From: Candidatus Latescibacterota bacterium
Lineage (GTDB): Bacteria > Krumholzibacteriota > Krumholzibacteriia > WVZY01 > JAKEHA01
NCBI GenBank assembly: GCA_963707635.1
Contig: OY970173.1
Span: forward strand, 2,880,001 to 2,944,000
Reading direction: 5' to 3'
Length of the DNA: 64,000 nucleotides
Positions within the stretch are counted from its first letter, which is position 1; each line of letters opens with the position of its first letter. The notes beneath the pieces are model-generated. The model worked only from the letters and a program-made list of their open reading frames with translations. It did not search any database and had not been told where the DNA came from. The translations under genes were made by a program, and so were the position numbers. Shown piece after piece: positions 27,426-46,437 of this stretch.

Positions 27426-30400
27426 CTAGCGCACGCGGACGCGATACGTTACGACGCCCGCCTGTCCCGGCGCGAGATAGAATGTCGCGTTGCGGGAAAG
27501 CACCACGCGCAGTGTGCGGTCGGCGCTGGTGTACTGGCACTCGTCCGCGTCCGACGGGTCGAAGGTGAACCACACCGGCGTCCCCGACGGCGGCTGCCAC
27601 TCCACGTCGAAGCCCGCGCCGAACGCGTTCGGCTCGACATCCACCCACGACGAGACCGGATCCACCAGCATCACATTGGCGAGACTGTCGGCGCCCGCGT
27701 TGAAGAGACGGACCGAATACGTGATCACGTCGCCCGGGCGGGCGTCGGTTCGATCGAGCGATTTCTGGACGGAAAGCTGTCCCGATCCCGCCGGCGCGAC
27801 CACGATGGCGTCGGCCGCGTTTGCGGTCAGCGTGATGGACGTCCCCGTTACCGTCTGCGTCGCGAGAATCGACACGGCGATCGTCGACCCCGGTGTCGCG
27901 CCGATCGGAACGAACACGCGCAGCAGCACGGTGAGGACACCGCCGCCCGGACCATCCGGGTCGAGGTCCCCGTCGGCCGCGACCAGCGGCCGGTCGGGGC
28001 CGTCGAGCAGGCCGTTTCCATTCGCGTCGAAATACCACGCCGTGGCCACGGCGGAGTCGGCGGTGGCGGTGAGGTCGACGTGACCGGCGGTACGGGCCTG
28101 GACACGGTGCCCGAAGTCGACGAACGCGCCCGGCGTCCCCGGTGACACCCCGCCCGCCGACAGGGTGAGAATGCCGATGTCGCCGAAGTCCGCGACGACG
28201 GAATCACCCGCGGCCACGACGCCGGTGTGAACCGTGTCCGGCGTGAGCGACACGAAGCCGATCGGGTTCTGCTCGATCACCACCAGGCTATCCGCCGGCA
28301 CCGCCAGCGCGTAGCTGCCGTCCCCGAGCGTGGTCGCGGAGAGACCGCTGCGCGCCTCGGTGACGAGCACGCCCCCCAACCCGATATCGCCGGCGCCGAA
28401 CACGCCGTCGTGATTGCGATCGTCGAACACCGTGCCGCGAACCAGCGCGCGGGTCTCGGTGACGAGGGCCACGCTCTCCGCCAGATTCGGCGGGAGACTC
28501 GACCACGCATTGATCAGCGTCGTGTGCGCCCCGTTGGCCGTGACCGGGACGCTGACCGCCACCGTGTAACGCTTGAGCTGCCCCGGGTTGAGAATCCGGG
28601 ACCAGAACGGAGCCGCGTGCACGACGAGAGAATCCTGAACCGTCACGCTGCCCGCCGGCCAGCCGCTGGGCACCGTCCACTGGACCCGGAAGGAATCCGG
28701 GAACGAGCCCGCGTTGCGCAGGTCGAGCTGCGAGACGTACGCGCTGCCCGGCGCCGCGCCACGCGTGGACGTGCCCCCCTGCCCGGAGCCGAGCAGTCCG
28801 AACACACCGGTGCCGTTGCCGTCGATGGCGAAGTCGGGGCGCGGGGGGCCAACGATGGCAACCCGCGCCGCGATACTCTCACGACTCGTCGGGTGGTTCT
28901 GCGACGTAATGTCGAGAATGTACTGGTAGGTGGCCGTCGCGGCCCCGGCCGGGACGGTCACGGTGAACGTGTACAGCCGCGAACCACCCGCGGGGACCAC
29001 CCCGGTGATAAACGGTGACGGCAACCCCGCGAGTCGAGCAGTCCAGGCGGAGATCGTGTTCCATTGCACGCGGTAGGTGTCCCCGCTCGGTCCCTGGTTC
29101 TGGAGCTCGACGGTGAAGTTCAACGTTCTGGGCGCAGGCGTGGTCTGCAGCGAACTCCCCCCCGCGCCGCTGCCGAGCGCGCCGAACACACCGTTGCCCT
29201 GGCCGTCGATCACCGCGTCGACGATGGCGGGCGGAATCACCACCACGCGGCCCGTGACACTGTCCATGAGGAACGGCTTGGTGGTCTTGCGTCCGTCCGC
29301 GATCACGTCGAACGTGCCGCCGGTCGAGCCGGGCGGGACGATGATGCGCAACGGATACGTCCCCGCCACGATGTTGGTGAGCGGCGCGACGCTCCCGTTG
29401 AAGGTCACGTTCCACCCGGGCGGAGTACTCCACGACACGTCGAAGCCGTTCACCCCCGACACATTTTGAACCTGCACCTGGAACACGACCGTGTCCCCGG
29501 GTGAGACGGTTTGGGTCGAGGTTCCGCCCAGCCCGGTGCCGACCGGTCCGTAGACGTCGGCCCCCTGCCCGTCGACGAGCATGTCGATTTCGCTGGGCGT
29601 CGCCACGCTCACGGTCGCGGAGACGCTTTCGGTGACGACCGCAGCCACCCGTGAGGCGGCGTTTAGCACCGAGAGGTACGTGCCGTACGCGGCTCCCGCG
29701 GGGATGTTGATGCGCAGCGTGTAGAACGCCTGGGCGTTGGGCGCGATGGTGGGCGTCACGGTCGGGAAGTTGCGCGCCACACCGCCGATGATGATCGCCG
29801 CCGTCCAGCCCGCGCCCGGCGCCGTCCACGACAGCGTAAAGGAGTCGGGCAATGCGCTCTCGTTCTGCACCGTGATCGGAAAGAGCACCTGCGCGCCGCG
29901 CTCGCCGGCGTTCGAGCTGCCGCCGCCTTTGCCCGTGCCGGTGGCGCCGTACACGTTGTCGCCGCTGGTCGCGATGATCATGTCCACGCGCGGCGCCAGC
30001 AGGCGCAGGATGGCGTGGACCGAGTCGCGCTTGTTGGCGTCGGCGCTCGAGGTGGCGCTGAGATTGACGTCGTAGTCGCCGCCTGGGTTGGGGGAAGCGA
30101 CCTGCATCCGCAGCGTGAGGAGCGCGGTCCCTCCGGCCGGGATGCTCGCGGTGGTAAACGGACCGGAATACGTGGTCGCGTTGTAGATCACCGAAGTGAC
30201 GAGACCCGCCTCGCTCGTGAACGCGATGGCGTAGGTGCTCGCCGCGTTGCCGGTGTTGTGCAGCTCGAGCGCGAAGTTGGCCGGCGTGCCCCAGGTCGAC
30301 GTCTTGAGCCCGAAGCCGCCGGCGCCGTTGTCTCCGATCACGCCCACGCCGTTGCCGTCGATGACGAGGTCGGCGCCGTGGGTGGCCGCCGTAATCAGCG

Positions 30401-31385
30401 CGCGCAGACGCGCGCTGTCGACGCGGCTGGCCTGGGTGGTGCTTTGCGCGTTTACGATCGCATCGTAGGTTCCGGCGCCGGCGGCCGCCGACGCGCGCAG
30501 CCGCACGCGGTACGTCGCCACGGCGCCGGGGGCGAGCGCCGGCATGACGTACGGAAACGCCTGCGTGGTCGCGCCGATTTCGAGCCACGCCGTCCACCCC
30601 GCCGGGAGCGTCGACGTGAGCCGGTAGGTGTCGGCGACGGTGCCCTCGTTCTCCACCCGCAGATCGTAGGACAGCGTGTCGCCGGCGAACGCGCTGTGCG
30701 ACGACACGCCGCCGTTTCCGCTCCCGAGCGCGCCGAACACGTCGTCGCCGTTGCCGTCCACCGCGAGGTCGGCCCACATCCGGTACACGAGCGACACGTC
30801 GTCGACGTAGGTCCACGTCTCGTAGAGGTTGTCGTAGAGGTTCGCCTGTTCGAAATAGAGGCGCACGGTCTGCCCGGCGAACGCGATCACGTCGTGCGAC
30901 ACCGGCAGCACGTTGTCGTCGCTCAACCATCCACTGTCCTTGTAGATGTCGTTCCACTCGCTGAACGCGTAGAGGAGCACGCGGCGCAGCAGCGTGTTGC
31001 CGGTGGATCGGATGTCCGCGTAGAAGGGGTCGTAGTAGTCGCTGTCGTAGCCCTGCATGCGGATCTTGAAATTGAGCGTCGCGCGCGAGACGCCGGCTGG
31101 AATCGAGACGGTCTGGTACATGTACGCGTGGGTGTTGGTCACCTGCGCCGTGTACTTGAAGCCGAGCAGCGCCGAATAGTTGCCCGCGTAGGGCAGGTCG
31201 AGTTTGACGGCATGATCGGCGTAGGTGGCGTTGTTCGTGGTGCCGCGGAATGCCCCGTGGACCCACGCCGTGCCGAACGAACCGGTCTCGAACCCGCCGT
31301 CGACCACCAGTTCGCCGGCGACGGAGGCACGCGCGGCCAGAACGGCCAGCGATGCGGCGAAAATCACGAACGCGAATCGTCTCAT
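27426..31385 (-). CDS. Secreted multi-Ig adhesin-like protein: N-terminal putative carbohydrate-binding domain, six Gly-rich Ig-like repeats, SdrD-B-like domain, C-terminal truncated DUF11 (putative tip subunit)
   Basis: Signal peptide MRRFAFVIFAA; LVVDGGFETG; GTVFDDRNHDG; LSVQKSLDRTDARPGDVITYSV...YRVRVR*; start overlaps upstream stop (TGATG). Confidence 0.8.
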   Translation of the reverse strand: MRRFAFVIFAASLAVLAARASVAGELVVDGGFETGSFGTAWVHGAFRGTTNNATYADHAVKLDLPYAGNYSALLGFKYTAQVTNTHAYMYQTVSIPAGVSRATLNFKIRMQGYDSDYYDPFYADIRSTGNTLLRRVLLYAFSEWNDIYKDSGWLSDDNVLPVSHDVIAFAGQTVRLYFEQANLYDNLYETWTYVDDVSLVYRMWADLAVDGNGDDVFGALGSGNGGVSSHSAFAGDTLSYDLRVENEGTVADTYRLTSTLPAGWTAWLEIGATTQAFPYVMPALAPGAVATYRVRLRASAAAGAGTYDAIVNAQSTTQASRVDSARLRALITAATHGADLVIDGNGVGVIGDNGAGGFGLKTSTWGTPANFALELHNTGNAASTYAIAFTSEAGLVTSVIYNATTYSGPFTTASIPAGGTALLTLRMQVASPNPGGDYDVNLSATSSADANKRDSVHAILRLLAPRVDMIIATSGDNVYGATGTGKGGGSSNAGERGAQVLFPITVQNESALPDSFTLSWTAPGAGWTAAIIIGGVARNFPTVTPTIAPNAQAFYTLRINIPAGAAYGTYLSVLNAASRVAAVVTESVSATVSVATPSEIDMLVDGQGADVYGPVGTGLGGTSTQTVSPGDTVVFQVQVQNVSGVNGFDVSWSTPPGWNVTFNGSVAPLTNIVAGTYPLRIIVPPGSTGGTFDVIADGRKTTKPFLMDSVTGRVVVIPPAIVDAVIDGQGNGVFGALGSGAGGSSLQTTPAPRTLNFTVELQNQGPSGDTYRVQWNTISAWTARLAGLPSPFITGVVPAGGSRLYTFTVTVPAGAATATYQYILDITSQNHPTSRESIAARVAIVGPPRPDFAIDGNGTGVFGLLGSGQGGTSTRGAAPGSAYVSQLDLRNAGSFPDSFRVQWTVPSGWPAGSVTVQDSLVVHAAPFWSRILNPGQLKRYTVAVSVPVTANGAHTTLINAWSSLPPNLAESVALVTETRALVRGTVFDDRNHDGVFGAGDIGLGGVLVTEARSGLSATTLGDGSYALAVPADSLVVIEQNPIGFVSLTPDTVHTGVVAAGDSVVADFGDIGILTLSAGGVSPGTPGAFVDFGHRVQARTAGHVDLTATADSAVATAWYFDANGNGLLDGPDRPLVAADGDLDPDGPGGGVLTVLLRVFVPIGATPGSTIAVSILATQTVTGTSITLTANAADAIVVAPAGSGQLSVQKSLDRTDARPGDVITYSVRLFNAGADSLANVMLVDPVSSWVDVEPNAFGAGFDVEWQPPSGTPVWFTFDPSDADECQYTSADRTLRVVLSRNATFYLAPGQAGVVTYRVRVR

Positions 31386-34300
31386 CACTTCAACCTCTCG
31401 AAATCGGCCAGCAGCCAGTCGGATAGCAGCATCTGAATACGAATGCCGAAACCCGCGCTCCACGCGTCGGTCGCGGTCACGTCGGGGTCGTCGAATCCAT
31501 TGACGCTGTACCCCACCCCGATGCGCACCGAGCGGTAGACCAGGCGCCCGAGCTCGATGCCGGCGCCGGCCTGCGCCGTCCCGCCCCCGCGCGGTACCAC
31601 CGCGCGACCCCACGCGTCGACGTCCCACCCCCGGCCGAAGTGCCAGACATACTGCGCGAGCGCGAGATCCGTGTTGGTGGTCGCGGACACGCCGTAGCTC
31701 CAGTCCTCGACGTGCTTGTACGCATACTTGAAGCGCAGCTCGTGCGCGGGAGTCGGCATCACGTTCACGTCGGTGGTCGCCACCAGCCGCCACCGGATCG
31801 CGTCCGGGTCGATGGGAGCGTAGCGGTCGTAGTAGCTCTTCAGCATCAGCAGCGACTGGACCGGCGCGAACGGGGACCGGTACGCGCCCGCCAGCGTGGC
31901 GTAGAACTGCGTCTCGTCGTTCGCGCCGTCGCGTTCGCCGAGCCCCATGATATTCTTGGCCAGCCACGCAAACCCGCCACCCAGCTGCTGGGCCGCGCTC
32001 ATGCGCACCAGGTGCTTGTCTCCCGGGCGTTCCCACCGGTACTCGTAGCCGCCGTCGACGAAATACGACCCCGGCCGGCGCGCGCCCAGGCCCGCGGACA
32101 GCGATAGGTATTCTTCGTCTTCGCGACCGGAGAGCGAGGTAAACGTCTCGAAGCCGAGAGTCGCGCTAGTCGCCGGTCCCAGCCGGAGCCTCTGCCGAAT
32201 CCCGCTCACCGCACCCATGCGCGCGTCGTCCGCCGCGCGGTCCATCGCGTAGCGCGTGTAGGCCTGGGTGCCGCCGGGCGTGGTTCCTTCGACCCCGGCC
32301 GTAATCTGATTGGTCGAGGGGCGGCCGCCCGCCGTGAGGTACTCGTGTGTCGCGATGGCGCGAACGCGCTTCGCGAGCGGCACTGCCAACACGGTCTTCA
32401 AGCGGTTCGGGTAGTCGTCGACCACCTGGTCGCCCACGTTCTGCTCCCATGTGGTGGAGATCCCGGCGGTGCCGCGATTGCCGACGGTGATGCCGGTGAG
32501 CACCAGGACTCCGTTCGCATCCTGCTGCGGCTCGTCGTGGCGCGCGAAGCGCAGCCCGGCCGACATCTCCAGCAAACGCCGGCGATAGTCGAGCGTGGCC
32601 CGGGCGGTCTCGCGCTTTTCGTCGGTGCGCTGGAGTTCGTGCGTGTAGCCGTCGGCATTGAGCGCGAGCGACGGGGACAGGGCGAGGCGGCCGTCGAAGC
32701 CCGCCTTGAGGCTCGCGAGCTCGCTGTCCGCCCCGCGGAACGACGGATTCACGAAGCCACCGTCGACGCGCCGCAGGTACATGTCGAGCTTGGAGGCCCC
32801 GCGTTGCGCGCCGGCGCCGACCTTGTACGCGTTGCCGTTGCCCGTGAGGTCGTCTTCGCTGTGCGCGAACTCGCCGCTGAATCGAGCGGCGCCCAGACGC
32901 GCGTCCCCGTCCACACCGAAGAGCGAGTAGCCGGGCGTGTCGCCCCCGTTCGCCACTGCGGTCACGCCGGCGCGATATCGGCTCCCCTGCACGACGTCGC
33001 CGCGCATGCCGTACAGGTACGCGCCGCTCACACCGGTCTCGGTCTCGTAGGTCACGGCAACGAAATTCGGGTTGAGCTCGCGGTCGGTCACCGCCACCGG
33101 CTCCATGAAGAGAATCGAGCCGTCGTAGGGGTTGATCGTGTAATCGCGCCGGCGAATCATGACCCGGGCCTCGAGGACTTCTTCCGTCTGGTAGCGATCG
33201 CGCGTCTCGACGATCACGCGCTCCGAGTTCTCGACGATCGGGGCGCTCGACAGGTAGTAGAACCCGCTGGTGCCGTCGGCGGGCATCTCGTCGGTGCGCG
33301 TGACGAAATCGGTTTCGGTCACGAACGCGCGCACGCTGTTCGCCCCGCTGGTGAGCGAAGCCGACAACCCCGTCACCACCTGGTGGTAGGTGAGAAACTC
33401 CCCGCGATCGATCGGGGTGGTGAAGTCGCCGTAGCGCAGGTACGATTGTTCGCGGTCGATCGACACGTAGTTGCCGCCGCGCGCGGGCGCGGCGTAGTGC
33501 ACCGACGACGCGTCGCCGTAGATCGGATACTGCTTCTCCGGATCGGGTTGCTTGAGCAACGGGTCGTCGTAACGCTTCTTGGTGTCGAGCCGGGCGGTGA
33601 CCTGGACCCCGCCCGGCGCGGCCCCCTGGACGAAGAGGCGCGACTCGGCTTCCACGTCGAAGCCATCGTGGTAGTTCGCCACCCCCTGCCCGCTGCCGTC
33701 GCCGCGCGTGTCGTACGCACCCATGGTGACGTCGACGATGCCGTCGGCCAGAAACGGACGCTCGGGGTTGACGAATACGACCTCCGTCTCCGCCCGCATT
33801 CCGTCCATCTCCACCGCCACCCGCCCACCGCCGGTCGCGTGCCGTGGCTTCAGGACCAGATTCACGATTCCCTCGCTGGTGGTCGCCTGCAGCCCGCGCT
33901 CGTCGGGCCGCGCGTCCGCGAGCGCGACCAGGTCCGCGCCCTCCGCGACCGTGACGACGATGCCGTCCATCACCGGCAGCCCGAACCCGTCGCGCACCGC
34001 GAAACGCAACGTGGTCGCGGTGTGGCCGTCCGCCGGAACCAGCGCGCGCGCGTCGAGCGGCACGAGCTCCGCCGGTTTCGACGAAAGCGCGACCCGCACG
34101 CTGTCGGACGCCTCGCCTCCGCGCAGCATGGTGGCGTGCGCGATCAGGTCATTCCAACCCGCGCGCACCCGCACGCCGAACCAGGTCGTGGTCTCTTCCT
34201 GGTGCGCGACGTCCACCGTGTGCTGCCCGACGCGGTCCTCGCCGACCAGTTCGTCGTTGACGCGCAACTCCACGCGGCTCCCGAGCGGATGGCGGACACG

Positions 34301-37138
34301 CACTGCCACCTGGTCCCGATCCCGCACGACCAAGCCGTCGTTCGGTTCGAGGATGGTGACGAGGCTGGCAGCCCCGGGTGGCGCCGGAGCGGGGTCCCCG
34401 GCGGGGACCAGGGCGATCTTCGCCGGGGCCGCGATTTCGGTCCACGAGAGCGCGTCGAACACCGCGCCCGGCGCGATCGCCGCGGTGCGCACGCCGGGTC
34501 GGACGACGGTCGTGTGCACGGAGCCCGAGTCGCCCGCCGCGGAATCGACCAGGGCAATCGCCGCGGTGACGTCGCGAACCAGGTGCGTATCCGGAGTCGC
34601 CGCGGTGAATGCGACCTGGCAATCGATGGCCCGTCCGCGTCTGAGCGACTCGAAGCTGAAGACGCCGCCGTCGGATGGCAGCGGGACCCGGTCGAGAAGC
34701 GCGCTGACGGTCACGTCCCCGAGCCCTTGCGGAACCTCGACCCGGAGGGTGCCGCGCTGGGTGTGTTCCGAGGTGGTGGTGAATCTCCAGCGCACGGTGG
34801 TGCGCGAGGAATCCGGCAACACCGAGAGATCGCGGACCGCGTGGCCGACGCGCAGCGTCGGGTCCGCGCCGTCGGCGGATGGCGGAATGAAACTCACCTC
34901 GACGCGGCGGTTGAAGCTGCGCCCGTCAGGCGTACCGTTGCCCGCCACCGGCCGGGTGTCCCCGTAACCGCGCACGACGATCCGGTCTCCGTCCACCCCC
35001 ATCGCGACGAGGGCGTCGCGCACCGCTTCGGCGCGCGCCACCGACAGCTCGTAGTTCGACGGGAAACGCCTGCTGCGCATCGGCGTGTTGTCGGTGTGGC
35101 CTTCGACCAGAGCCGCCCAGCCCGGACGGTCGAGCAGAAAGGCCGCCACCGGTCGCAGCCCCCGGTCCGCACCGACGACCAGCGACGCCTGGCCGAAGTC
35201 GAACTGCGAGCTTGGCAGCGTGAACTCGCCGAGCCGCACCCGTCGCGCGACGCTGACCCGCTCTTCGCACGCGAGCAGCGCGGTACGCGTGAGCGGCGGC
35301 ACCACCGGTTTGCGCAGCGGGAAGGCGACGCGCGCGTGGGCCGGAGCGATCAGGTGCACGAGACGCTCGTTGGGCCGGGGGGCGTGGCCGTCGCCCACAG
35401 CGGGTTCCACCAGTTCGACGCCGGCCGGGAGCGTTCCCTCGTCGAGGCGCACCAGGCGGTAGCCCTCGAACACGTGCGGAATCGAGAAGACTCCCAGCGA
35501 GTCGGTCACCGCGTACTCGCCGCTCTCGAGGTAGACCGAGACGTTCCCCACCCCGGGCTCGCCGGGGTCGCGGTCCCCGTCGCCGTCGTCGTCGATCCAC
35601 ACGTCACCGAGCAGAAAGCCCTCGATGCCAACTTCCTCGTTGTCGATGCGAATGGCGGCGACCACCGGCGCCGTTTCGACCGGATCGCCGGTCACTGCGC
35701 TGCCACGCGCCACCCCCGACACGCTGGCCCAGCCGTTGGGCTCGCGGCTGTTCACCGCGAACTTGACCGAGGTGGTGCGCGTCTCGCCGGGAGCCAGCGA
35801 CCCGACGGCCCACGAGAGCTGGTTCCCCGACCACGCCACCCCGCCCCCGGAGAGAAAATCGAGCGCCGGCGGCACCGACTCGGCGACGCGCACGTTGTCG
35901 ACGCGGATCGAGTCGGTGCGGTTGGTCGCGGTAACCACCATGGTCACGACGTCGCCCAACGACGCGGTCGCCTGCCGGAACGTCTGCTCGAGGCCGATCA
36001 TCGTGCGCGGATCGGGCACCGCCGCCAGGGCGAGCCGGCACGTCGTCCGGTTCGTGACCAGCGTGTCGAGGCGCGACTGCGCGGTGAAATCGAACGCGCG
36101 TATCGCGCCGAGCGCTGTGCGCAGCGGCGTCCCCGGGCTCGACACGACGAGGCGAAGCGACTTGATCTCTCCGGGCGCGAACGCGCCCACCAGGAACTTC
36201 CCGGGTTGCGGAGCCGGCGGGAACGGCACCCCGTTCACGTCCGTGCACACGACGCCGACGCCCGGCGGAAACGCGGCGGACGCGAATACCACCACGCTGT
36301 CGGCGTCGCCGGCGTTCTCGATGTCACCCGCGAAGGTCACGGTGTCATCCAGCACGCCGATGCCGACGGTTGACGCGTCGTCGGGCGATCCCTCGCCCCC
36401 GGGCAACGCGCGCGGGTTTCCCGCCGGCCCGAAGAACACCGCGGACACGAGCGCGCGACTGGTCACACGCACCACGGTCGCATCCGTCACGGGGGCCTGC
36501 GGCGCGAAAGCGGCGGCCGCGACACCGGGATCCCACGCGGAGGTCGCGCGCAGCTCGACGTACGCATCTCCCGCCGGGGCGGGCAGCACGAGTGCGACAT
36601 CCACCGGTGTCGAGAGACCCGCGCCGACCACGAGGAACGACGGGTTGTCTTCGCCCGCATCCAGCCGCCCATTCGCGTTGGCATCGCGGAAGAAGATCAC
36701 CGTCGCGGGCGAGATGGTCGAGGGTGGGAGACTCGTGGTCGACATCGCGACCGAGTCGGGCGCGTTGCCGAGGTTGTCGAGCGACAGCCGGCAGTAGACC
36801 GTATCGAACGGAGCCGCCTGCAGCGCGTACGCGGGCGTTGCCACCGTTCCCGGCGGAGTGATACGCAGGCCAAAGATCGTGAGTACGGGCGTGGAGACGG
36901 TGTTCGAGCCCGTCGCATTCACGTTCCCGGTGTCGGTGAAGACCGTCTGGGCGGTGTTCCGGATGTCGGTACCGCCGGGTGTGACCTGAGCGTGTGCGGG
37001 TTTCGAAGGCCAAAAAGCCAGCACGAACAGCAGCGCGAACAAGACGTAACGCGTTGCAGAAAAACGAAAAACGGCGAGTCCCCCCGCCGCGTTTACTGCC
37101 CGCCGCCAGTCGAAATTCTGCCGCGCTAGAGCCTTCAT
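31385..37138 (-). CDS. Large outer-membrane protein: Ig-like/DUF11 domains, SdrD-B-like domain, OmpA_C domain, large C-terminal beta-barrel (putative anchor/translocator)
   Basis: Signal peptide ending AHA|Q; GDVWIDDDGDGDRDPGE; VEGHTDN, LSVARAEAV, GYGDTRP, NRRVEV; long run of amphipathic strands at the C-terminus; exact start uncertain. Confidence 0.85.
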   Translation of the reverse strand: MKALARQNFDWRRAVNAAGGLAVFRFSATRYVLFALLFVLAFWPSKPAHAQVTPGGTDIRNTAQTVFTDTGNVNATGSNTVSTPVLTIFGLRITPPGTVATPAYALQAAPFDTVYCRLSLDNLGNAPDSVAMSTTSLPPSTISPATVIFFRDANANGRLDAGEDNPSFLVVGAGLSTPVDVALVLPAPAGDAYVELRATSAWDPGVAAAAFAPQAPVTDATVVRVTSRALVSAVFFGPAGNPRALPGGEGSPDDASTVGIGVLDDTVTFAGDIENAGDADSVVVFASAAFPPGVGVVCTDVNGVPFPPAPQPGKFLVGAFAPGEIKSLRLVVSSPGTPLRTALGAIRAFDFTAQSRLDTLVTNRTTCRLALAAVPDPRTMIGLEQTFRQATASLGDVVTMVVTATNRTDSIRVDNVRVAESVPPALDFLSGGGVAWSGNQLSWAVGSLAPGETRTTSVKFAVNSREPNGWASVSGVARGSAVTGDPVETAPVVAAIRIDNEEVGIEGFLLGDVWIDDDGDGDRDPGEPGVGNVSVYLESGEYAVTDSLGVFSIPHVFEGYRLVRLDEGTLPAGVELVEPAVGDGHAPRPNERLVHLIAPAHARVAFPLRKPVVPPLTRTALLACEERVSVARRVRLGEFTLPSSQFDFGQASLVVGADRGLRPVAAFLLDRPGWAALVEGHTDNTPMRSRRFPSNYELSVARAEAVRDALVAMGVDGDRIVVRGYGDTRPVAGNGTPDGRSFNRRVEVSFIPPSADGADPTLRVGHAVRDLSVLPDSSRTTVRWRFTTTSEHTQRGTLRVEVPQGLGDVTVSALLDRVPLPSDGGVFSFESLRRGRAIDCQVAFTAATPDTHLVRDVTAAIALVDSAAGDSGSVHTTVVRPGVRTAAIAPGAVFDALSWTEIAAPAKIALVPAGDPAPAPPGAASLVTILEPNDGLVVRDRDQVAVRVRHPLGSRVELRVNDELVGEDRVGQHTVDVAHQEETTTWFGVRVRAGWNDLIAHATMLRGGEASDSVRVALSSKPAELVPLDARALVPADGHTATTLRFAVRDGFGLPVMDGIVVTVAEGADLVALADARPDERGLQATTSEGIVNLVLKPRHATGGGRVAVEMDGMRAETEVVFVNPERPFLADGIVDVTMGAYDTRGDGSGQGVANYHDGFDVEAESRLFVQGAAPGGVQVTARLDTKKRYDDPLLKQPDPEKQYPIYGDASSVHYAAPARGGNYVSIDREQSYLRYGDFTTPIDRGEFLTYHQVVTGLSASLTSGANSVRAFVTETDFVTRTDEMPADGTSGFYYLSSAPIVENSERVIVETRDRYQTEEVLEARVMIRRRDYTINPYDGSILFMEPVAVTDRELNPNFVAVTYETETGVSGAYLYGMRGDVVQGSRYRAGVTAVANGGDTPGYSLFGVDGDARLGAARFSGEFAHSEDDLTGNGNAYKVGAGAQRGASKLDMYLRRVDGGFVNPSFRGADSELASLKAGFDGRLALSPSLALNADGYTHELQRTDEKRETARATLDYRRRLLEMSAGLRFARHDEPQQDANGVLVLTGITVGNRGTAGISTTWEQNVGDQVVDDYPNRLKTVLAVPLAKRVRAIATHEYLTAGGRPSTNQITAGVEGTTPGGTQAYTRYAMDRAADDARMGAVSGIRQRLRLGPATSATLGFETFTSLSGREDEEYLSLSAGLGARRPGSYFVDGGYEYRWERPGDKHLVRMSAAQQLGGGFAWLAKNIMGLGERDGANDETQFYATLAGAYRSPFAPVQSLLMLKSYYDRYAPIDPDAIRWRLVATTDVNVMPTPAHELRFKYAYKHVEDWSYGVSATTNTDLALAQYVWHFGRGWDVDAWGRAVVPRGGGTAQAGAGIELGRLVYRSVRIGVGYSVNGFDDPDVTATDAWSAGFGIRIQMLLSDWLLADFERLK

Positions 37139-37234
37139 CGCATATAACACGTTCGGCCGGCGCACGCGGGGGAGCCGTGTGGGCTCCACCCGCATGCGCG
37201 GCCGACGTAAGGGGCCGCTATCGAAAGAAAGCGG

Positions 37235-39935
37235 CTACTGAATCCGGACTGTGAACCCGACCCCGGAGGTCGAGCTCGCACCGGCCAGGAGACTCCCCGT
37301 GAACACCCAGCGCACGTTGGTCACGTTCGCGTCGTATCCCGCCGGAGCTCCCCCGCCGCCGCTCGCCGGCGCGTAGGTCCAGGTGGCTCCGCTGTCGTCG
37401 GAATACTCGATCGCGATGGCGGTGACCGACGCCGGCGCCGTGCCGCTCGTCGCCGAACCCACCTGGAATTGCGTCCAGGTCGGAACCGCGTCGTAGATGG
37501 CGATCGTCGTGAGCGTCGAGCTGCCGAGGTTCTGGTAGTCCACGGTGTATGCGAGATCGGTCCCCGGCGCCTGAGCGCCCGCCGGGCTCACCGCCTTCGT
37601 CAACACCAGGTTGCCCGCCACGATGGTCGTGACGTCGGTGGCGTTGTCGGAGGCGAGGGTGACCTGACCGGTCGCCGTGAGCACCCCGATCTCGACCGTC
37701 CCCACCGTCGCCCCGGCCGGCACCGTGAGGCGCGCGGTCACGCTCGCACTCGCGCCCGGCGCGAGAGTCACGCTCGAAATCGGCGTGCTCGTCACGTCGA
37801 GGAACACGTAGCTCCAGCCCTGCGAGGAGACGTAGGTCAGGTCGAAGGTGTCACCGACATTGCCGTTGTTGGTCACCGTGTGCGCATACGTGATGGTCCC
37901 GCCGGCGGTGGTGTTGCCCGCGTTGTCGGGGTCGAAGAGCACCGACGCCAGCGTGTTCACCGTCACCGTGTTGGCGATGGTGTCGCTTTGCGTCGCGTTG
38001 ACCGTCGACGTGGCCGTAAACGAGGTTCCGTTGACGCCCGGCGCGGTGCCCGCGGGCACCGCCACGCGCGCGATGAGGTTGGTCTCGGCTCCGGAAGCAA
38101 CCACACCCGTCGAGGTGATCGGCGACACTTCGCCGGCGTCGAGGATGCCGTTGCCGTTCGCGTCGAGATAGAACACGACCGTCCAACCCGCGGGGACGGA
38201 CGAGGACAGCGTGAAGTTGTCGCTCGAACCGCCGCCGTTGATCACGTCGAGCGCGAAGTCGACCGACGCGCCCGGGTTGGTGTTCTGATTCACCGACGCG
38301 TTGTTGGTGGTTCCCGCCGCGCCGTCATAGTTGCCGATGTCCACCGTCGCGGGCAGTACCGCGTCGATGCGATCGGTGGTCAGGTTGTCCTCGGCCGGGG
38401 TGTTCGCGGACTGCGCGCGCACCACGGCGGCGAACGGGCCACCGGCCCCCTGCGAACCGGGAATGACCACCCGCACGACGATGTCGATCGACGCTCCCGT
38501 CGCGAGCGGGCCCACGTCGACGTTGCCGTCGAAGTCGGAATCCGAAAGCGGCGTGATGCCGTCATTGTGATAGAACAGCACCGACCACGAGCCGGGCACC
38601 GTCGACGAGCCATCGAGCACCACGTTGACCGCGTCGTTCGTGTTGCCGTCGTTGCGAATCGTGTTGGTGAAGTCGACCGACGTGTTGGCGTACGCGCTGG
38701 CGACACTCTGCAGGTCGTCGTCGTAGTTCGGCGGCGTTCCGGCGTCGGGGACGCCGGCCGGGCCGATCACCACTCCCGCGAGGATGCCGACGGTCACCGG
38801 CGCGTTGTTCGACGTGACGATGGTCGGGTTCGGCGTCACCACGTTGTTGTCGACGTAGGCCAGCGCCGCGGTGTTGTTCAACACGCCCGGCGTCATCCCC
38901 GCGACCACCGTGACCTGGTACGAGAACGAGTAGCTCTGCCCCGGCACGATGGCGCCGTTGGTCACGTACGCCACCGCGATGTCGCCGAAACCCGCCGCCA
39001 GCGACCAGTTCCACGTCTCAGGGCTCCCGGCGGTCGAGCTTCCGCTGGGCAGGTACAGGACCGTCCCGCCCGCGGGCGAGCCCGTCGGCGCCCCGAAGAC
39101 CGGGAGTGGATTGCCCGAGCCCGGATTCAGCGGGATCACGTCGTACATCAGAACACCCGTGAGGGCGACCGACCCGACGGTGACGCCGTTGGCGTTGTTG
39201 GTTCCGGAGTTCGATGCCCGTGAAGGTGTAGCTGATCTGGTCGCCGTCGTAGACCAGCGCGGGGGCACCCGTGAGGTTGGCCGTCATGACGGCGTCGTCC
39301 ACCACCGTGGTGCGGTGGTAGTTGCGCGTATCGATCTGACCCGCGTCACCCACGGACGTGCCCTGCACGCCGACGTAGGCGAGCTGGCCCGCGGTCGCGG
39401 TGCCCGGCACCGCGTAGGTGACGATAAGGCTCACCGACGTGCTGGCCGCGACCGGACCGAGGACGCCCGGTACCCCGCCGACGCTGATCGCCGGCTCGCC
39501 GCCGTCGACCACGCCGTTGCCGTTGATGTCGTGATAGATCGACACGTTCGCCAGCGCGATGGTCATGGTCGTGTTGACCGCATCGACCAGCGGCGCCAGC
39601 GTGTAGCTGTCGTTGTCGTTACCGGTGTTGGTGAGCGTATAGCTGTAGAACAGCGTCTGTCCGCCGATCGCGTTCTGGCTCATCGCCGGCGTGACCGGTG
39701 GCGTCTCTCCCGAATCGTCGGGAAGGATCGAGATGCCGTAGACCGGCAGCACCACTGTAATGACTTCGTTCGAAAGCGCGGTGTAGCTGTTGCCGACCAG
39801 GTCCTCGTAGGTCGCGGACGCGCGATTGCGAATCTGCGTCCCCGCCGGCGTCGTCTGCGCGAACGCAGCCGCCACGGAGAGCACGAGCACGAGGGTCAGG
39901 ACGAGCGGGAGGATCAGAAGGTGTCTGGTTTTCAT
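37235..39935 (-). CDS. Secreted DUF11/Ig-repeat protein (putative shaft subunit, ~899 aa) split by a +1 frameshift near 39215
   Basis: ORFs 39018..39935 and 37235..39268 join as ...ISYTFTG/SNSGTNNANGV... on removing one base; GAGGA RBS; signal peptide AFA|Q; ends LVLTKAVS...FTVRIQ*. Confidence 0.85.
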
Positions 39936-39947
39936 CTTCGGTTCCTC

Positions 39948-40433
39948 CTACTTGACCGTGGCCCGGTACGAGAACGTGATCTCGTCTTCGGGCTTCAGGC
40001 CGCCGGACAGCGTCCAGCGAATGTGGGTGATCATGTCCGGCGTCGCGTCCGCCCAGACCTCACGACCGTCGGCCGCCGCTTTCTTGAAGCGAACGGGCCA
40101 GGCGTGGAAGGTCTTGCCGCTGTCGATGCTGAACTGCACCGAACCTGCAGCCGGAGCCTTCGCGGTCTTTTCGACGTACTGGACGCCGGCGGGAACCGGG
40201 TCGACGATTGACACGTTGTGGACGGCCTCGGCGCCACCGTTGGCGTACGTCAGCCGGTATTCGATGACGTCCTGCGGACGGGCTTCGTCTGCAGGCAGGT
40301 AGACTTCCTCGCCGCGCTCGCCGACGATGACCTTCCGGGCTTCGATGGTGCCCGTGACAGGACCGGCGGCAGTGGCAGCGAGCGACGTGATCAGTCCGCC
40401 AACAAGGGCGAACAGGAAGAAAACGCGACGCAA
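39948..40433 (-). CDS. Small secreted single truncated-DUF11 protein (161 aa)
   Basis: TTG start with AGGAGG at 40441-40446; signal peptide; ARPQDVIEYRLTYANGG, VDPVPAGVQYV, HIRWTL, FSYRATVK*. Confidence 0.85.
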   Translation of the reverse strand: MRRVFFLFALVGGLITSLAATAAGPVTGTIEARKVIVGERGEEVYLPADEARPQDVIEYRLTYANGGAEAVHNVSIVDPVPAGVQYVEKTAKAPAAGSVQFSIDSGKTFHAWPVRFKKAAADGREVWADATPDMITHIRWTLSGGLKPEDEITFSYRATVK

Positions 40434-40540
40434 GGTGGAACCTCCTGAGTATCGAGAAGCCCACGCATCGGCGCGGGCGCACTCCTCCCATGCAAACCCG
40501 CGCGTCGGGCGCAGGCGCAACTTCTCGCGGGAGCCCGGGG

Positions 40541-40555
40541 GCAAGGGACGTTCCA
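40541..40555 (-). promoter_or_regulatory. Sigma54 (RpoN) -24/-12 promoter of the DUF11 operon
   Basis: Minus strand TGGAACGTCCCTTGC vs consensus TGGCACG-N4-TTGC; exact GG-N10-GC spacing, ~108 nt upstream of the first start codon. Confidence 0.75.
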
Positions 40556-40845
40556 GTCGTGGCCGGAAAGGGCGGGATGTTCCCGATGGAAGCGGATGAG
40601 GGAGGAATGTGGCGTCGCGGCGCGGCTTACGCGCGGTGACGGAGTGGCCGTCGGTGCCGCCACCGGGCGCATGACGGACTATCGCGCCCGCGAATGGTTG
40701 TCACTCCGCAATGCGGGCGCAGGGGGCCTTGCAATGTGCAATTCTTCCCAGTCGGGGGTGGCGCGCCAGGTGAGTCGGGACCAGCACGTCGTTCTCCGAG
40801 GAGCGCCGGGGGTCAACCTACAATATTCTAACGGCTTATGAATTG

Positions 40846-40875
40846 TTGAAAATTATACATAGCCTGTCCTATATT
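40846..40875 (+). promoter_or_regulatory. Putative leaderless-type sigma70 promoter of the two-component pair
   Basis: TTGAAA-18-TATATT-6 nt-ATG in an AT-rich patch. Confidence 0.45.
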
Positions 40876-40881
40876 CTGCAC

Positions 40882-41961
40882 ATGCCGGGCTCGCCTTCCA
40901 AACGCTGGCAGGTGGTCACACTCGTGGTGATCGGCGCCGCCACCGTATCGTTCCACTACGGCTTCTTGCTCCCTCGATCCATCGGGCATGGCAGCCTCGT
41001 CCACGTCATCCACGGGCGCCTGTGTTATGTGCCCATCATTCTGGCGGCGATCTGGTTCGGGGTACGAGGCGGACTCGCGCTTTCGCTCTCGATCACGGCG
41101 CTCACCCTGCCCTACCCGCGCCTGCGCGGGATTACCGACCACCACACGTTGATCGGCGAATACACCGAAATGGTGTTCTACGTGGCGATCGGCCTGATGA
41201 CCGGTGTCCTGATCGAACGCCAGTGGCGCGAGCGGGCGCGCGGCGAAGCCCTCCAGCGCGAGCTCGCGCGCCGCGAGCGCCTCTCGTCGCTCGGGCAGAT
41301 GGCCGCCGGCCTCGCGCACGAGATCAAGAATCCGCTCGGGTCCATCCAGGGCGCGGCCGAGATTCTGGGCGACGACGCGCCGGCCGATTCCCGCAGGCGG
41401 GAGCTGTTCGAGATCCTGCGCAAGGAATCGAAGCGGCTCGGGACCGTGGTCGACGACTTTCTCACCTTCGCGCGCCCGCGTCCGCTGTCGCTCTCTCCGC
41501 TCGACCTCGGTGCGGTGGCGGAGCGCGCCGCCGCGCAGATGAACATCGACGCCTCCGCGCGCGGCATCACCATCGAGCTCCAGCGCGCGCCCGACCTGCC
41601 CCGGGTGGCCGGCGACACCGAGCGGCTCCACCAGGTATTCTTGAATCTGCTCTTGAACGCGCTCGCCACCAGCGCGGACGGGGGCCGGGTGGTGGTGTCC
41701 TCGTTTCCCGCCGAGCGCGACGGCGCCGCGTGCGCCGCCGTGTCGGTGCGCGATTTTGGCTCCGGCATTGCGCCCGACGCACTCCCGCGCGTGTTCGACC
41801 CGTTCTTCACCACGCGGGAAAACGGGGTCGGCCTGGGCCTCTCGATATCGCACACCATTGTGCAGGAACACGGCGGCTGGATCGACGTCGACAGCGCGCC
41901 GGGTGCCGGCACCACGGTCACCGTCGTCCTCCCCGTCGATCGCACTCGCCATGGCGCATAG
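40882..41961 (+). CDS. Membrane sensor histidine kinase (NtrB/ZraS-like)
   Basis: About 4 TM helices; LAHEIKNPL, QVFLNLLLNA, DFGSGI, FDPFFTT, GVGLGL. Confidence 0.93.
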   Translation: MPGSPSKRWQVVTLVVIGAATVSFHYGFLLPRSIGHGSLVHVIHGRLCYVPIILAAIWFGVRGGLALSLSITALTLPYPRLRGITDHHTLIGEYTEMVFYVAIGLMTGVLIERQWRERARGEALQRELARRERLSSLGQMAAGLAHEIKNPLGSIQGAAEILGDDAPADSRRRELFEILRKESKRLGTVVDDFLTFARPRPLSLSPLDLGAVAERAAAQMNIDASARGITIELQRAPDLPRVAGDTERLHQVFLNLLLNALATSADGGRVVVSSFPAERDGAACAAVSVRDFGSGIAPDALPRVFDPFFTTRENGVGLGLSISHTIVQEHGGWIDVDSAPGAGTTVTVVLPVDRTRHGA

Positions 41962-43303
41962 TCGCATCCTGCTCGTGGATGACGACGAGAGCATCCGCAA
42001 GGTCCTCGGCTATATGCTCGAGGAGGCCGGCTACGCGGTCGAGTCCGCGCCGGGAGCCGACGCCGGGCTGCGACTCGCGGCCGAGCGGCGCCCCGACCTG
42101 GTCTTGAGCGACATCAAGATGCCGGGCAAGGACGGGCTCGAGCTGTTGCGCGAGCTCCGGGCTTTCGATCCGTCGATCCCGGTGATCATCCTCACCGCGT
42201 TCGGCACGGTGGGGACCGCCGTCGAGGCGATGAAGCACGGCGCGTCCGACTACCTCACCAAACCGATCGCGCGCGACGATCTATTGCTGACGGTGGCGAA
42301 GACGCTCAAGCTCCACCGCCTCGAGGCGGAAAACGAGGATCTGCGGGAGACGCTCCGCGACCGCTTCCGCTTCGAGAGCATGGTCGGGCTTTCGCCGGCG
42401 ATGACAGAGGTGTTCGCCACGCTGCGCAAGGTGGCGACCACCGAAGCCACCGTGCTAATTACCGGAGAGAGCGGGACGGGCAAAGAGCTCATCGCGCGCG
42501 CGATCCATTTCAACAGCCCGCGGCGCTCGCAGCGCATGGTCACGATCAACTGTGCCGCGATTCCGCACGACCTGCTCGAGAGCGAGCTGTTCGGTCACGT
42601 GCGCGGGTCGTTTACCGGCGCGATTCGTGACAAAGTCGGCAAGTTCGAACAGGCGCACGGCGGCACGCTCTTTCTCGACGAGATCGGGGCCACGCCGCTG
42701 GTGCTGCAGGTGAAGCTGCTGCGCGCCCTGCAGGAGCGGGAGGTCGAGCGGGTTGGCGGCGACGCGCCCATCCAGGTCGACGTGCGCATCGTCGCCGCCA
42801 CCAATCGGGCGCTGGCGACGCTGGTCGCCGCGGGCGAATTTCGCGAGGACCTCTTCTACCGGCTCAACGTCGTGCCGGTCCGGGTGCCGCCGCTGCGCGA
42901 GCGCGCGGGCGACCTCCCGCTCCTGGTCCGCCACTTCCTGGCGAAGTTCGCCGACGGCAAGGTCACCCTGACCCCGGAGGCGCTCGCGGCCCTCGAGCGT
43001 TATCGCTGGCCGGGGAACGTCCGCGAGCTGGAGAACTTCTGCGAGCGCATGGCGCTGATGCGCTCCCGCGACGTCATCGACGCCGCAGCCGTCGCCGCCG
43101 AGCTGGCGACGCTGGAGCGCGAGGCTCCGGCGGCGATCGGAGCCACCCTGCACGAAATCGAGCGCACCGCCATCGTCGAGGCGCTGCGCGCCAGCGGCTG
43201 GAATCGGTCCCGCGCCGCCCGCCGGCTCGGCGTCGCGCGCCACATCCTGCTCTACCGCATGAAGAAGTTCGACATTCGCGACGAGGGCGAGTCGGTGCGT
43301 TGA
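41951..43303 (+). CDS. Sigma54-dependent response regulator (NtrC/AtoC/ZraR family)
   Basis: Receiver (LLVDDD, SDIKMP), [36 protein letters not shown], Fis-type HTH. Confidence 0.95.
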
Positions 43304-43406
43304 GGGTGGTGGCGGGATGCACTCCCTCTACCGCCGTCCTCCCGCGCACAAAATTGAAATGCGCGGCTGCGGATTGGCGGTGCGAGGGAGTGCATCCCAC
43401 CTTGAG
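43300..43406. mobile_element. MITE-like palindromic element
   Basis: 15-bp perfect IR GGGATGCACTCCCTC (43314-43328)/GAGGGAGTGCATCCC (43384-43398), GGTGG/CCACC ends, flanking TTGAG direct repeats. Confidence 0.45.
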
Positions 43407-43503
43407 GCAGAGCCCCTCTGGCAACCGCGGTGCGTTCGTGCTAACCTCCCCAACTTGCGCGCGCGGCAGCGTGCGTGATCGTGTTTCCAGCCAGGGAGTG
43501 AAC

Positions 43504-46437
43504 ATGCGGCGCGCAGCGATCATCGCGGCATCTCTTCTTGCGGGCGCCGTCCCCGTCCACGGCGCTGACTACTTCCAACAGTTCGTGCATACCACCATCC
43601 GGGTGACACTCGACACCGAGCGCAAGTGGATTTCGGGCACGGAATCCATTCTCTACGTCAATAACTCGCCGGACACGCTGCGCCAATTCTATCTGCACCT
43701 CTATCCCAACGCCTTTCGCGACAACGACACCGCGTTCATGAAGAACCGGAACCGCCAGTACAACTGGACGCTCCTGGGCCTCCCGGATGCGAACCGAAGC
43801 TGGCTCGACCTTTCCAACGCGCGCGTGGACGGGACGCCGGTGGACGTGCGCGTCGACGACACCATCGCGAGCATGGCGTTGCCGCGGCCGCTCGCCCCGG
43901 GCGACTCCATGCGGGTCGAGTTCGCGTTCGACGGGAAAGTGCGCCAGGCGTTCGACCGCGCCGGCTACCGCGGCGACCACTACGACTTCGCCCAGTGGTA
44001 CCCGAAGGTGGTCGTGTACGACGAGCGCGGGTTCCACCCCGACAAGTTCCAGGCCGGCGAGTTCTACGGCGAATTCGGGACCTTCGACGTCCACATCGAG
44101 CTGCCGCAGCGTTTCGTGGTGGTCGCGACCGGCGTCGTCGAGAGCGGCGACCCCGGATGGGACTACAACCCGCCGCACCGGAAGCGCGGCGCGAAGACGG
44201 GCGCCGGCAAGACGCCGCCCGCGTCGGGGAGCAAGACCATCCACTTCCACGCCGAGAAGGTGCACGACTTCGCGTGGTGCGCGGATCCGACCTACGTCGT
44301 CCAGGACACGCTCCTCGACGGCATCGAGATCCGAAGCGCGTATCGGCGCCGGAGCGCGTCGACCTGGGAGGACTCGACCCTCGCGCACGCGATCCGCGCC
44401 GTCACCTGGCTGAACCGTCGCGTCGGCAAGTACCCGTATCCGCACATCACCGTCGCCGAGATGTTGCGTATGGGCGGGATGGAATACCCGATGCTCGCGA
44501 TGGACGGCCGCGCGACCGAGGGGCTCGCCTTGCACGAGATCGGCCACATGTACTTCTACGGGATACTAGCCAACAACGAGCGCACGGAGGCGTGGCTCGA
44601 TGAAGGCTTCACCACCTTCCAGACCCGGTGGTATCAGGAGCGGCACTACGGCCCGTGGGGCGACACCAGCCGGCGGAACTGGTACCAGCGCATCACCCCG
44701 CAATACCGGCTGTGGGAAGAGTACCAGCGGGACATCGTGGACCTGCACCGCCGTGGTTACGGCGAGCGGGTGTCGTACCGGGCAGAGGACTACCTCCACT
44801 CGTACCGGGTGAACGTGTATCAGAAGGCGGCCCTCGTCGTCCGCGCGCTGCGCTTCGCCGCCGGCGACGACGCGTTCGACCAGATTCTGCACCGCTACTA
44901 CGATGAGTGGCAGTTCAAGCACGTGAACGAGGCGCGTTTCCGCGCGGTGTGCGAGGACGTCGCGAAGCGCGACCTGTCCCGCCAGTTCGAGCAGTGGCTG
45001 CACACCAAGAAGGCGGTCGACTACGCGCTGACGCGCGTGCACTCGACGCCGGCCGCGAACGGCGTGTCGACCGACGTGGAGATCCAGCGCATCGGCGAGC
45101 TGTACTGTCCGATCGAGGTCGCCTTCACCCTCCCCGACGGGCGCGTCGAGAAGCGCCGCTTCGACGCGCGCGATCGCACGATCCGCCAGAAGGTGGAGTT
45201 GCCGGCAAAGCCGGTCCGAACCCAGATCAACCCGGACAACGAGATCATGGATATCGATCCATCGAATAACGTGACGCCCCGCCAGCGCGACTTCCAGATC
45301 GACTGGCCCAACAACTACTACTATCCCGCCGACGCCTACCAGATCCGCCATCGTCCCGCGATCTGGTACAACGACGTGGACGGCGCGAAGGTCGGCTACC
45401 ATTTGTCCGGGAGTCTCCAGGGCTGGAAGCACCGCGCGAACCTCGGCGTCTACTACGGCGTCGAGAGCGGCGAAACGGATTTTTCAGCGTCGCTGGACGA
45501 GCCGCTGCGCCTGCTGGGGAGCAACGCGACCCTGCACGCCTCGGGCTACAAGATGGAGGGCCGCGCGGACTGGAAGCTCGACCTGCGCCTGACCCGACGG
45601 TCGCATCTGCTCGACCCGCCCACGCACGAGTTGTTGATCGGCTACGGATACCACGAATTGCGCGACCCGCGGTACCTGACCAGCCCGGAGATCTACGACA
45701 CGCTGCAGGCGGACTCCGGCCCGTACTTCGGCTACACCGTCGACCCCCAGCTCGACATCGCGTCGATTCGCTTCGAGGCGAATCTGACGATGGGAAACCA
45801 GTGGTTCGCGGGCGAATACGACTACGAGCGTTTCGCGGCGAGTCTCACCCTGCAGTCGCGACCGAGCGTCGTGAAGGTGGATGCGCGACTGCGGGGGTTC
45901 GCGGGGTTCGCGGGAGGCGGCACCGCCACCTCGCGGAAGTTCAACCTGGCGGGGGCGGGACCGCTGCGCGCCGAGGAGCGATTCTGGCTCCGCTCACCGG
46001 GCGCCGTGCCGGAGGGCCTGCACTATCTGGAGCCCGGCGACGGCAACCTGCGCGGATACGCGGCGGGGACGTTCGGCGTGAACCAGCTGATGGCGCTGAA
46101 CGCCGAACTGGGAGGTCCGCTCGCGCTCCCGGGAATCAAGAAACTGCAGAAGTGGATCGGAACCCCGTCGCTGTACGGGTTCTACGACGTGGGATGGATT
46201 TTCGACAGCGTGAACCCGATCTCGACGAGCGCGCGGGTCGGGGCGCTGGTGGACGGCGGAATCCTGGACGACGTGCTCCAGGACGCGGGACTCGGGATTC
46301 GCTCCGCGGTGGCGTGGCCGTTCTGGAACTTCACCTGGCGTTTCGACGTGCCATTCTATGTAACGAATCCGGAAGTCAACGCCGAGAGCGAAACCATCGA
46401 CTGGCGGTACCTCTTCAGTCTGACGGCGACGTTCTAG
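43504..46437 (+). CDS. Secreted M1 family Zn aminopeptidase with C-terminal beta-barrel-like region
   Basis: Signal peptide; AQWYPK, GGMEYP, HEIGH-18-E (WLDEG), VYQK; amphipathic strands ending in Phe. Confidence 0.88.

Follow-up and report, generated by a model that had tools for sequence, protein, structure and literature searches.

Split DUF11 (CLIPPER) domains on separate proteins as the basis of a candidate pilus-like surface fibre in Candidatus Latescibacterota

The window analysed here is a stretch of 64,000 nucleotides from a Candidatus Latescibacterota bacterium (assembly GCA_963707635.1, contig OY970173.1, positions 2,880,001 to 2,944,000 of the forward strand). According to its list of open reading frames (ORFs), the minus strand carries four co-oriented genes, which encode a small protein, a shaft, an anchor and a tip. 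In this operon the DUF11 domain, also called the CLIPPER domain, is split between different proteins: a C-terminal domain (the acceptor) ends before its last two strands, and a hairpin of these two strands (the donor) stands at the N-terminus of another chain. It is probable, at about 0.68, that the two halves build a pilus-like surface fibre, in which the hairpin of one subunit completes the next and the joint is locked by a Lys-Asn isopeptide bond. The original prediction, made from the letters of the window, had proposed a surface fibre with an anchor, shaft, tip and cap formed by strand complementation of this kind. Its termini, hairpins and gene set are confirmed, and completion of the domain in trans and the roles of anchor, shaft and tip are supported; the single shaft ORF, the lectin label and the plain absence of an usher do not stand as worded, the cap is doubtful, and polymerisation is inferred. 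The parts of the system are as follows:

39948..40433, minus strand: small acceptor-only protein of 161 amino acids (aa), with a truncated DUF11 domain plus extra hairpins; signal peptide judged by eye
37235..39935, minus strand: shaft gene, with donor and acceptor, ~900 aa in relatives; frameshifted here near 39214-39216
39750..39857, minus strand: shaft donor hairpin at the predicted mature N-terminus, with the putative isopeptide Asn at codon 39827-39825 (sequence and complex model)
38789..39296, minus strand: complete internal DUF11-like domain of the shaft, spanning the frameshift (sequence)
37238..37615, minus strand: shaft acceptor domain, with Lys codon 37597-37595 and Asp codon 37492-37490 (profiles and complex model)
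37150..37206, minus strand: strong G+C-rich stem-loop past the shaft stop (folding z -5.26)
31385..37066, minus strand: anchor and predicted translocon, 1893 aa counted from a TTG start (ORF, Pfam, AlphaFold2 (AF2))
36881..36988, minus strand: anchor donor hairpin, with Asn codon 36958-36956 (sequence)
34892..35203, minus strand: OmpA-like domain of the anchor, of a peptidoglycan-binding family (PF00691, E 1.7e-16)
31388..33751, minus strand: predicted outer-membrane barrel of the anchor, ~36-40 strands, with an inserted beta-sandwich at ~33274-33038 (AF2)
27426..31385, minus strand: tip, 1319 aa, acceptor only, with a putative jelly-roll N-domain and immunoglobulin (Ig)-like repeats; its start overlaps the anchor stop
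27429..27782, minus strand: tip acceptor domain, with Lys codon 27764-27762 and Asp codon 27662-27660 (sequence)

The split itself can be followed directly. Three DUF11 C-termini, FTVRIQ, YRVRVR and YRATVK, each followed by the stop, belong to domains that end before their last two strands, and the missing strands are found at the N-termini of two proteins (hairpins 39857-39750 and 36988-36881). PF01345 matches the small protein, the anchor and the tip above the cut-off, while the shaft acceptor falls below it (20.6 vs 24.6 bits). An acceptor profile of 83 rows (the window copy plus 82 hand-picked out of 113, two Lys-to-Glu cases being left out) aligns to columns 7-103 of the 143 in the complete-domain profile and ends on the FxVxI strand (HHalign 98.5%). 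With the donor profile, the match falls on the missing tail, where it belongs, and brings both Asn motifs into register (E 0.002-0.007, a weak match), while the head is not matched (E 0.33); with the full donor-plus-Ig profile against complete domains, the hairpin was not picked up. In 267 of 276 C-terminal acceptors, the final strand lies 1-5 residues before the stop. After removal of 7 duplicates from the 102 loci scanned, 95 were retained. A compact type, with two shafts of ~350 aa, gave 58 loci. The profile scan of loci gave 385 acceptor and 222 donor matches, with none in reversed ORFs. No other parts of split domains were found elsewhere in the genome. The pattern across the 95 loci supports the split and the roles of anchor, shaft and tip described in the original prediction, and the loss of the donor/acceptor pattern in homologous operons, which it had named as a reason to give the idea up, was not seen. 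The only Protein Data Bank (PDB) match of the acceptor profile is 9IFR (E 0.018); in the single-sequence PDB search, the shaft acceptor gave only Asp-box-like matches and the anchor internal domain none.

The original prediction missed the chemistry of the split. In the CLIPPER structure 9IFR an intramolecular Lys715-Asn806 bond is formed, with a putative catalytic Asp (PMC12617251). Asn806 aligns with the Asn of an I/V-N-x-A motif, ten residues beyond the YxVxV strand, which is the part absent from acceptors; the cut therefore divides the triad, as judged by alignment, leaving Lys and Asp on the acceptor chain and Asn on the donor chain. That is to say, the family and the Lys, Asp and Asn positions are those of CLIPPER, where the tandem repeats of the stalk form the bond intramolecularly, whereas here the domain is cut before the Asn strand and its halves lie on separate chains. 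Lys and Asp are kept in 119 of 124 donor-plus-acceptor proteins, the exceptions being two Lys-to-Glu changes, one fusion of shaft and small protein, one misalignment and one anchor fragment. They are also the sole invariant columns of the 83-row alignment, but those rows were hand-picked, and 119/124 is the figure relied on. By rule, 46 of 52 tips keep both residues, after 10 acceptor-only matches had been set aside, namely fragments of shafts, shafts with a donor that escaped the profile, and one stray match. The donor Asn is kept in 81/81 main shafts, in the anchor of the window and in all 42 compact-type anchors counted. Both complete DUF11 domains in the window are without Lys, so no full triad lies inside one domain, and in the complete internal domain of long shafts the Lys position is not Lys wherever it can be read. 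Since donor-only and acceptor-only proteins retain triad residues which cannot act in cis, pairing in trans is indicated.

Complex prediction, which the original prediction had suggested as a check, was run on the shaft pair. The shaft acceptor with the shaft donor and its next Ig domain scored 0.94, against 0.00 for the best of three controls; the score mark is reached by 116 of 157 solved pairs and 2 of 215 mismatched pairs. The model runs agreed in at least 99% of contacts, with a partner pLDDT (predicted local distance difference test) of at least 93. Although the adjacent Ig domain was included, all partner contacts listed but one fall within residues 1-39, the hairpin, and Lys7, Asp42 and Asn11 all lie in the predicted interface. 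Packing of the N-terminal peptide on its own adjacent domain, which had been named as an outcome that would count against the idea, was not seen, the contacts going to the acceptor via the hairpin. The donor hairpin is thus predicted to dock in the acceptor groove in trans.

On this basis, the following assembly is proposed. All four proteins would be exported by Sec; each N-terminal two-strand hairpin would complete the C-terminal domain of the next subunit, and the joint would be locked by an autocatalytic, Asp-catalysed Lys-Asn isopeptide bond. The fibre would have the order tip - (shaft)n - anchor, with the excess of shaft set by an RNA hairpin. Export would proceed through the plugged barrel of the anchor itself, and the OmpA-like domain would tether the fibre to peptidoglycan.

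Several points weigh against this proposal. The homology of donor to tail is weak taken alone; the 25 contact pairs listed do not include Lys7-Asn11; and, since a relative of the domain whose halves are joined in the model has been solved, the pass of the model may be driven by likeness to 9IFR or other CnaA folds. In addition, the shaft gene is frameshifted in this window. Positions 37235-39935, previously described as one 899-aa protein, are not one ORF here: an extra base near 39214-39216, overlooked at first, leaves two frames of 305 aa and 677 aa. As the extra base is absent from 4/4 read runs (related strains, at most 3 samples) and 28 of 29 other loci read through the frameshift point (the remaining one gave no shaft match), the break is an assembly error or a private mutation. 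A complete shaft ORF of ~900 aa is present in 18 of the longer related loci. A programmed or shared frameshift was also considered and is ruled out by the 28/29 loci that read through, one relative being broken at a different place. Separately, locus L003 and several further loci have independent frameshifts in shaft, anchor or tip genes, through assembly error or real decay.

Evidence for a polymer comes from the RNA. The stem-loop after the shaft stop in the window (z -5.26) was matched in stability by 0 of 200 shuffles. A hairpin follows the main shaft in 26/30 long-type loci and the anchor in 0/28; among compact-type loci it follows the main shaft in 33/46, the small gene in 2/54 and the upstream shaft in 2/39, and it is also present after the shaft in Thermus and Deinococcus. 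It is likely an mRNA stabiliser or attenuator, and its conservation behind the shaft gene suggests that the shaft is the major subunit, on the model of papA, where the message of the major subunit is in excess. This is tempered by the controls, which are mostly coding DNA and mononucleotide shuffles, and by the 10/31 long-type loci which fold after the small gene too. Codon bias gave no clear sign of a major subunit (shaft above anchor in 14/24 loci and above tip in 17/24), a result that would also suit a fixed short assembly of one anchor, one shaft and one tip, that is, a fibrillar adhesin in pieces with specific pairs and no shaft polymer. The shaft, ~900 aa with several Ig-like domains, is already long enough to favour such an assembly, and gene-specific donor sequences could encode its strict order. 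However, the shaft donor fits the shaft's own acceptor type, the stem-loop is specific to the main shaft gene across phyla, and compact shafts of ~350 aa would make a very short stalk. The fixed assembly is therefore judged unlikely, though it is the best of the alternatives.

The small protein, called a cap in the original prediction, does not suit that name well. It is present in 90 of 95 loci and encoded, along with the shaft, upstream of the hairpin, from which it is likely to be abundant. At its Asp position, 24 of 91 proteins have Asp, 47 have Asn and 12 have Gly; Lys and Asp occur together in 11/91 and not in the other 80/91, which suits reversible binding more than permanent capping. 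A reversible guard is therefore the likelier role, so far as the residues tell. In the window, Asp stands at 40202-40200, and the position of the reactive Lys holds Ile or Lys depending on register (hhalign leaves the first strand unaligned). On the other side, 139 close relatives all keep the Asp (139), with Lys/Arg in 105/34, and the small protein may be reactive in this lineage. It is an evenly balanced proposal that the small protein reversibly holds donor hairpins in the periplasm against premature locking, and that the anchor hairpin serves as an exchangeable base or terminator. In a separate case, L118:8882-10372 has the shaft and a small acceptor-only protein in a single 497-aa frame, by fusion or assembly slip.

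The anchor contains a donor hairpin, Ig-like domains, a complete DUF11 domain without the triad, an SdrD_B-like domain, the OmpA-like domain and a giant barrel. AF2 on its last 854 residues (47 rows) gave a pLDDT of 78.2 and a predicted template modelling (pTM) score of 0.69, with ~36-40 membrane strands by our own count and the beta-sandwich inserted at 226-304. In VIA the PapC usher is the top match to the barrel (Z 14.3, root-mean-square deviation 7.8, 314 aligned), but Tom40, SDBC and VDAC tie with it (Z 13.3-13.6), and the matches from Foldseek are only distant barrels (TM at most 0.27). The anchor barrel is, on this modelling, a putative usher analogue and would serve as a dedicated translocon. 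The earlier statement that no usher or sortase is nearby holds genome-wide by Pfam, with no match to Usher PF00577 in the genome (96% complete; the control search works in E. coli) or to sortase PF04203 (the control search works in three Gram-positive genomes), while the barrel of the anchor itself is laid out like an usher. Thermus and Deinococcus carry the donor-only protein on a gene of its own, which lies upstream of the likely barrel gene(s).

As for the tip, the label "lectin-like" is a weak lead only: an Atlas match at 0.90 leads to a cluster with 21% CBM_4_9, a MAM-like Pfam match occurs in 3/23 relatives and not in the window's copy, and no PDB match was found under E 0.2. Tips form many unrelated sequence groups on one shared acceptor module, and one is annotated as a beta-helix protein. 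In a close relative (L043:10495-11763), the place of the usual 1300-aa tip is taken by an unrelated protein of 423 aa that has the same acceptor module. Such interchangeable payloads speak against a further alternative, in which the same chemistry would build a periplasmic or envelope tether or lattice between the outer membrane and peptidoglycan rather than an external fibre. In its favour, the anchor donor lies N-terminal to an OmpA domain of periplasmic type, so that it must be threaded out or stay inside, a difficulty for the external fibre as well, and export of folded multi-domain chains by the barrel is only inferred. Nevertheless, the predicted barrel is very wide with an inserted domain, and CLIPPER domains typically occur in the stalks of surface adhesins (PMC12617251), which makes an envelope structure slightly less credible than even the fixed assembly.

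Not every joint of the fibre is covalent, to judge from the residues, because some anchors and upstream shafts have lost Asn and some tips have lost Lys and Asp. Of the long-type anchor donors 21/31 are without Asn, as are 16/39 upstream short shafts (and four further ones by eye), and 4 tips are without both Lys and Asp; these counts also tell against a universal lock. Some DUF11 domains likewise have no isopeptide bond (PMC12617251), and it could be argued that the strands complement one another in trans with no lock at all, Lys, Asp and Asn being kept for packing. This is improbable, as no acceptor positions are more conserved than the buried Lys and Asp, at 17-87% identity, and the complete internal domain of long shafts has lost its Lys. 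The remaining alternative, in which the shaft closes on itself as rings or closed monomers and only the other proteins pair in trans, gains from the blindness of two-chain models and sequence co-variation to cis versus trans and from an uninformative AF2 model of the full compact 350-aa shaft (8-row alignment, pLDDT 53.5), but is the least probable of all, as compact shafts have almost no linker between domains and three acceptor types with one other donor would leave the tip and the small protein competing for the anchor alone.

In L066, L072, L095 and L100, tips without Lys and Asp adjoin adaptor shafts without Asn, which in one clade may leave the joint fully non-covalent. A strict rule that tips lose Lys/Asp together with the Asn of the adaptor was rejected: 4/4 tips without both residues fit, but 5 Asn-less adaptors accompany intact tips, and one clade is no test. 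Betaproteobacterial upstream shafts (L109:7788-9302, L110:2321-3835, L121, L124 and L126) have Cys-x-x-Cys in the turn of the donor hairpin together with acceptor Cys pairs, and in two of this group Glu replaces Lys.

In SpyTag/SpyCatcher, an engineered split CnaB domain re-forms its Lys-Asp bond in trans with one strand; the present system would be a natural CnaA-type, Lys-Asn, two-strand version. Type V pili are built from lipoprotein prepilins by proteolytic activation with C-terminal donor strands, whereas here the donors stand at the N-terminus and the signal peptides, as judged by eye, are not followed by a lipobox Cys. The likeness to chaperone-usher pili (Fim, Pap) is closer: an acceptor-only tip, a donor-plus-acceptor shaft, a donor-only terminator, a plugged outer-membrane barrel (here predicted), an excess of major subunit (here proposed), and an N-terminal extension that completes the Ig-like fold of its neighbour (here by prediction, and with two strands instead of one). 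They differ in that the operon system has a two-strand hairpin, a proposed covalent lock and multi-domain subunits, and in that its small helper is acceptor-like and not a strand-donating chaperone. No two-domain chaperone of the PapD/FimC type is found in the operon, where the small protein is a single truncated DUF11 domain; no search for PapD was made beyond the operon. There is also no PF00577 usher, and the usher, with its 24 strands, is far smaller than the predicted barrel (PMC13721041).

In locking, the nearest system is the BsaA fibre of Clostridium perfringens (TasA family), in which donor-strand insertion is followed by an autocatalytic intermolecular Asn-Lys bond, an "exchange and lock" backed by mutants (bioRxiv 10.1101/2024.11.04.621531). 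BsaA differs in its TasA-like subunit, single donated strand, Glu catalyst, SipW processing, monoderm host and lack of a barrel; neither a TasA-family subunit nor a SipW peptidase is among the four operon genes. Archaeal thread (PMC9715654), tafi (PMC11821415), Elr/WxL (bioRxiv 10.64898/2026.10.17.759780) and Pam (PMC13278184) are also donor-strand polymers with tip and base; isopeptide links have been proposed for the archaeal thread, and the Elr pilus carries variable tips on a fixed attachment module. Their hosts are archaea, Bacillota and CPR (candidate phyla radiation) bacteria, their subunit families are others, and the parts of these papers available describe no outer-membrane barrel or split CLIPPER. 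The "DUF11" matches in the tafi paper proved to be DUF1102 (PMC11821415). The system resembles chaperone-usher pili in order and BsaA in its proposed locking and belongs to neither. No description of a split-DUF11 system was found in the literature searched, most subscription journals lying outside the search, and DUF11/CLIPPER is absent from the examined part of a 2026 Chem Rev review. In summary, each principle has precedent (chaperone-usher order, BsaA locking, CLIPPER chemistry), and the combination and parts list are without one in the searchable literature.

The system is not confined to this lineage. Close homologues bear names that indicate Krumholzibacteria. In a sample of the phylum, 68 of 151 genomes have a match to the small-protein profile, compact-type loci carry the labels Gamma-, Beta- and Alphaproteobacteria, Eisenbacteria, Zixibacteria, Nitrospirae, Sulfurovum and others, and related operons lie on plasmids of Thermus, Deinococcus and cyanobacteria, the operon of Thermus thermophilus HB8 being TTH_RS10905-10925; viral contigs gave 0 loci. 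A broader proposal, a shade less than evenly balanced and put tentatively, is that of a widespread diderm pilus class with natural split-isopeptide, sortase-free covalent self-polymerisation, its own plugged barrel of 36-40 strands, a hairpin-sheathing "inverted chaperone" and orthogonal pairs which order tip, adaptor, shaft and base. If true, a pilus class would be shared by many phyla with an outer membrane and be present in the tractable organism Thermus thermophilus HB8; diderm bacteria would be able to link their fibres covalently with no enzyme; a large number of "DUF11/hypothetical" genes would gain a function; and a new giant outer-membrane translocon as well as natural families of split, self-ligating protein pairs would be defined. 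In Deinococcus radiodurans MP1 (L132:11041-19250), an intact shaft (donor Asn, acceptor Lys and Asp) is followed by fragmented genes, and no small protein was seen directly upstream of it. DR_B0037 is presumably the shaft gene product of Deinococcus radiodurans, an assumption that is given no weight here. A protein of that label is listed in a mutant supernatant (PMC5382914).

The surroundings of the operon point to its regulation:

40541..40555, minus strand: sigma-54-type -24/-12 promoter site before the first gene (motif match)
40843..43303, plus strand: divergent sensor kinase and NtrC-type regulator (ORFs; family read from sequence)

The sigma-54-type site was matched in 28 of 31 related long-shaft loci (0.12 expected by shuffles) and in 0/4 Thermus, Deinococcus and cyanobacterial loci. 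A kinase lies within 1.5 kilobases of the operon in 14 of 29 related loci, and the divergent kinase and NtrC-type pair is a candidate activator of the operon's sigma-54 site. The operon is flanked in the window by a phosphoenolpyruvate carboxykinase-like gene and two-component genes. Beside the regulator, a 1045-aa frame at 43300-46437 (plus strand) resembles, on a reading of its sequence, a secreted peptidase of the M1 family whose C-terminal region is rich in beta structure.

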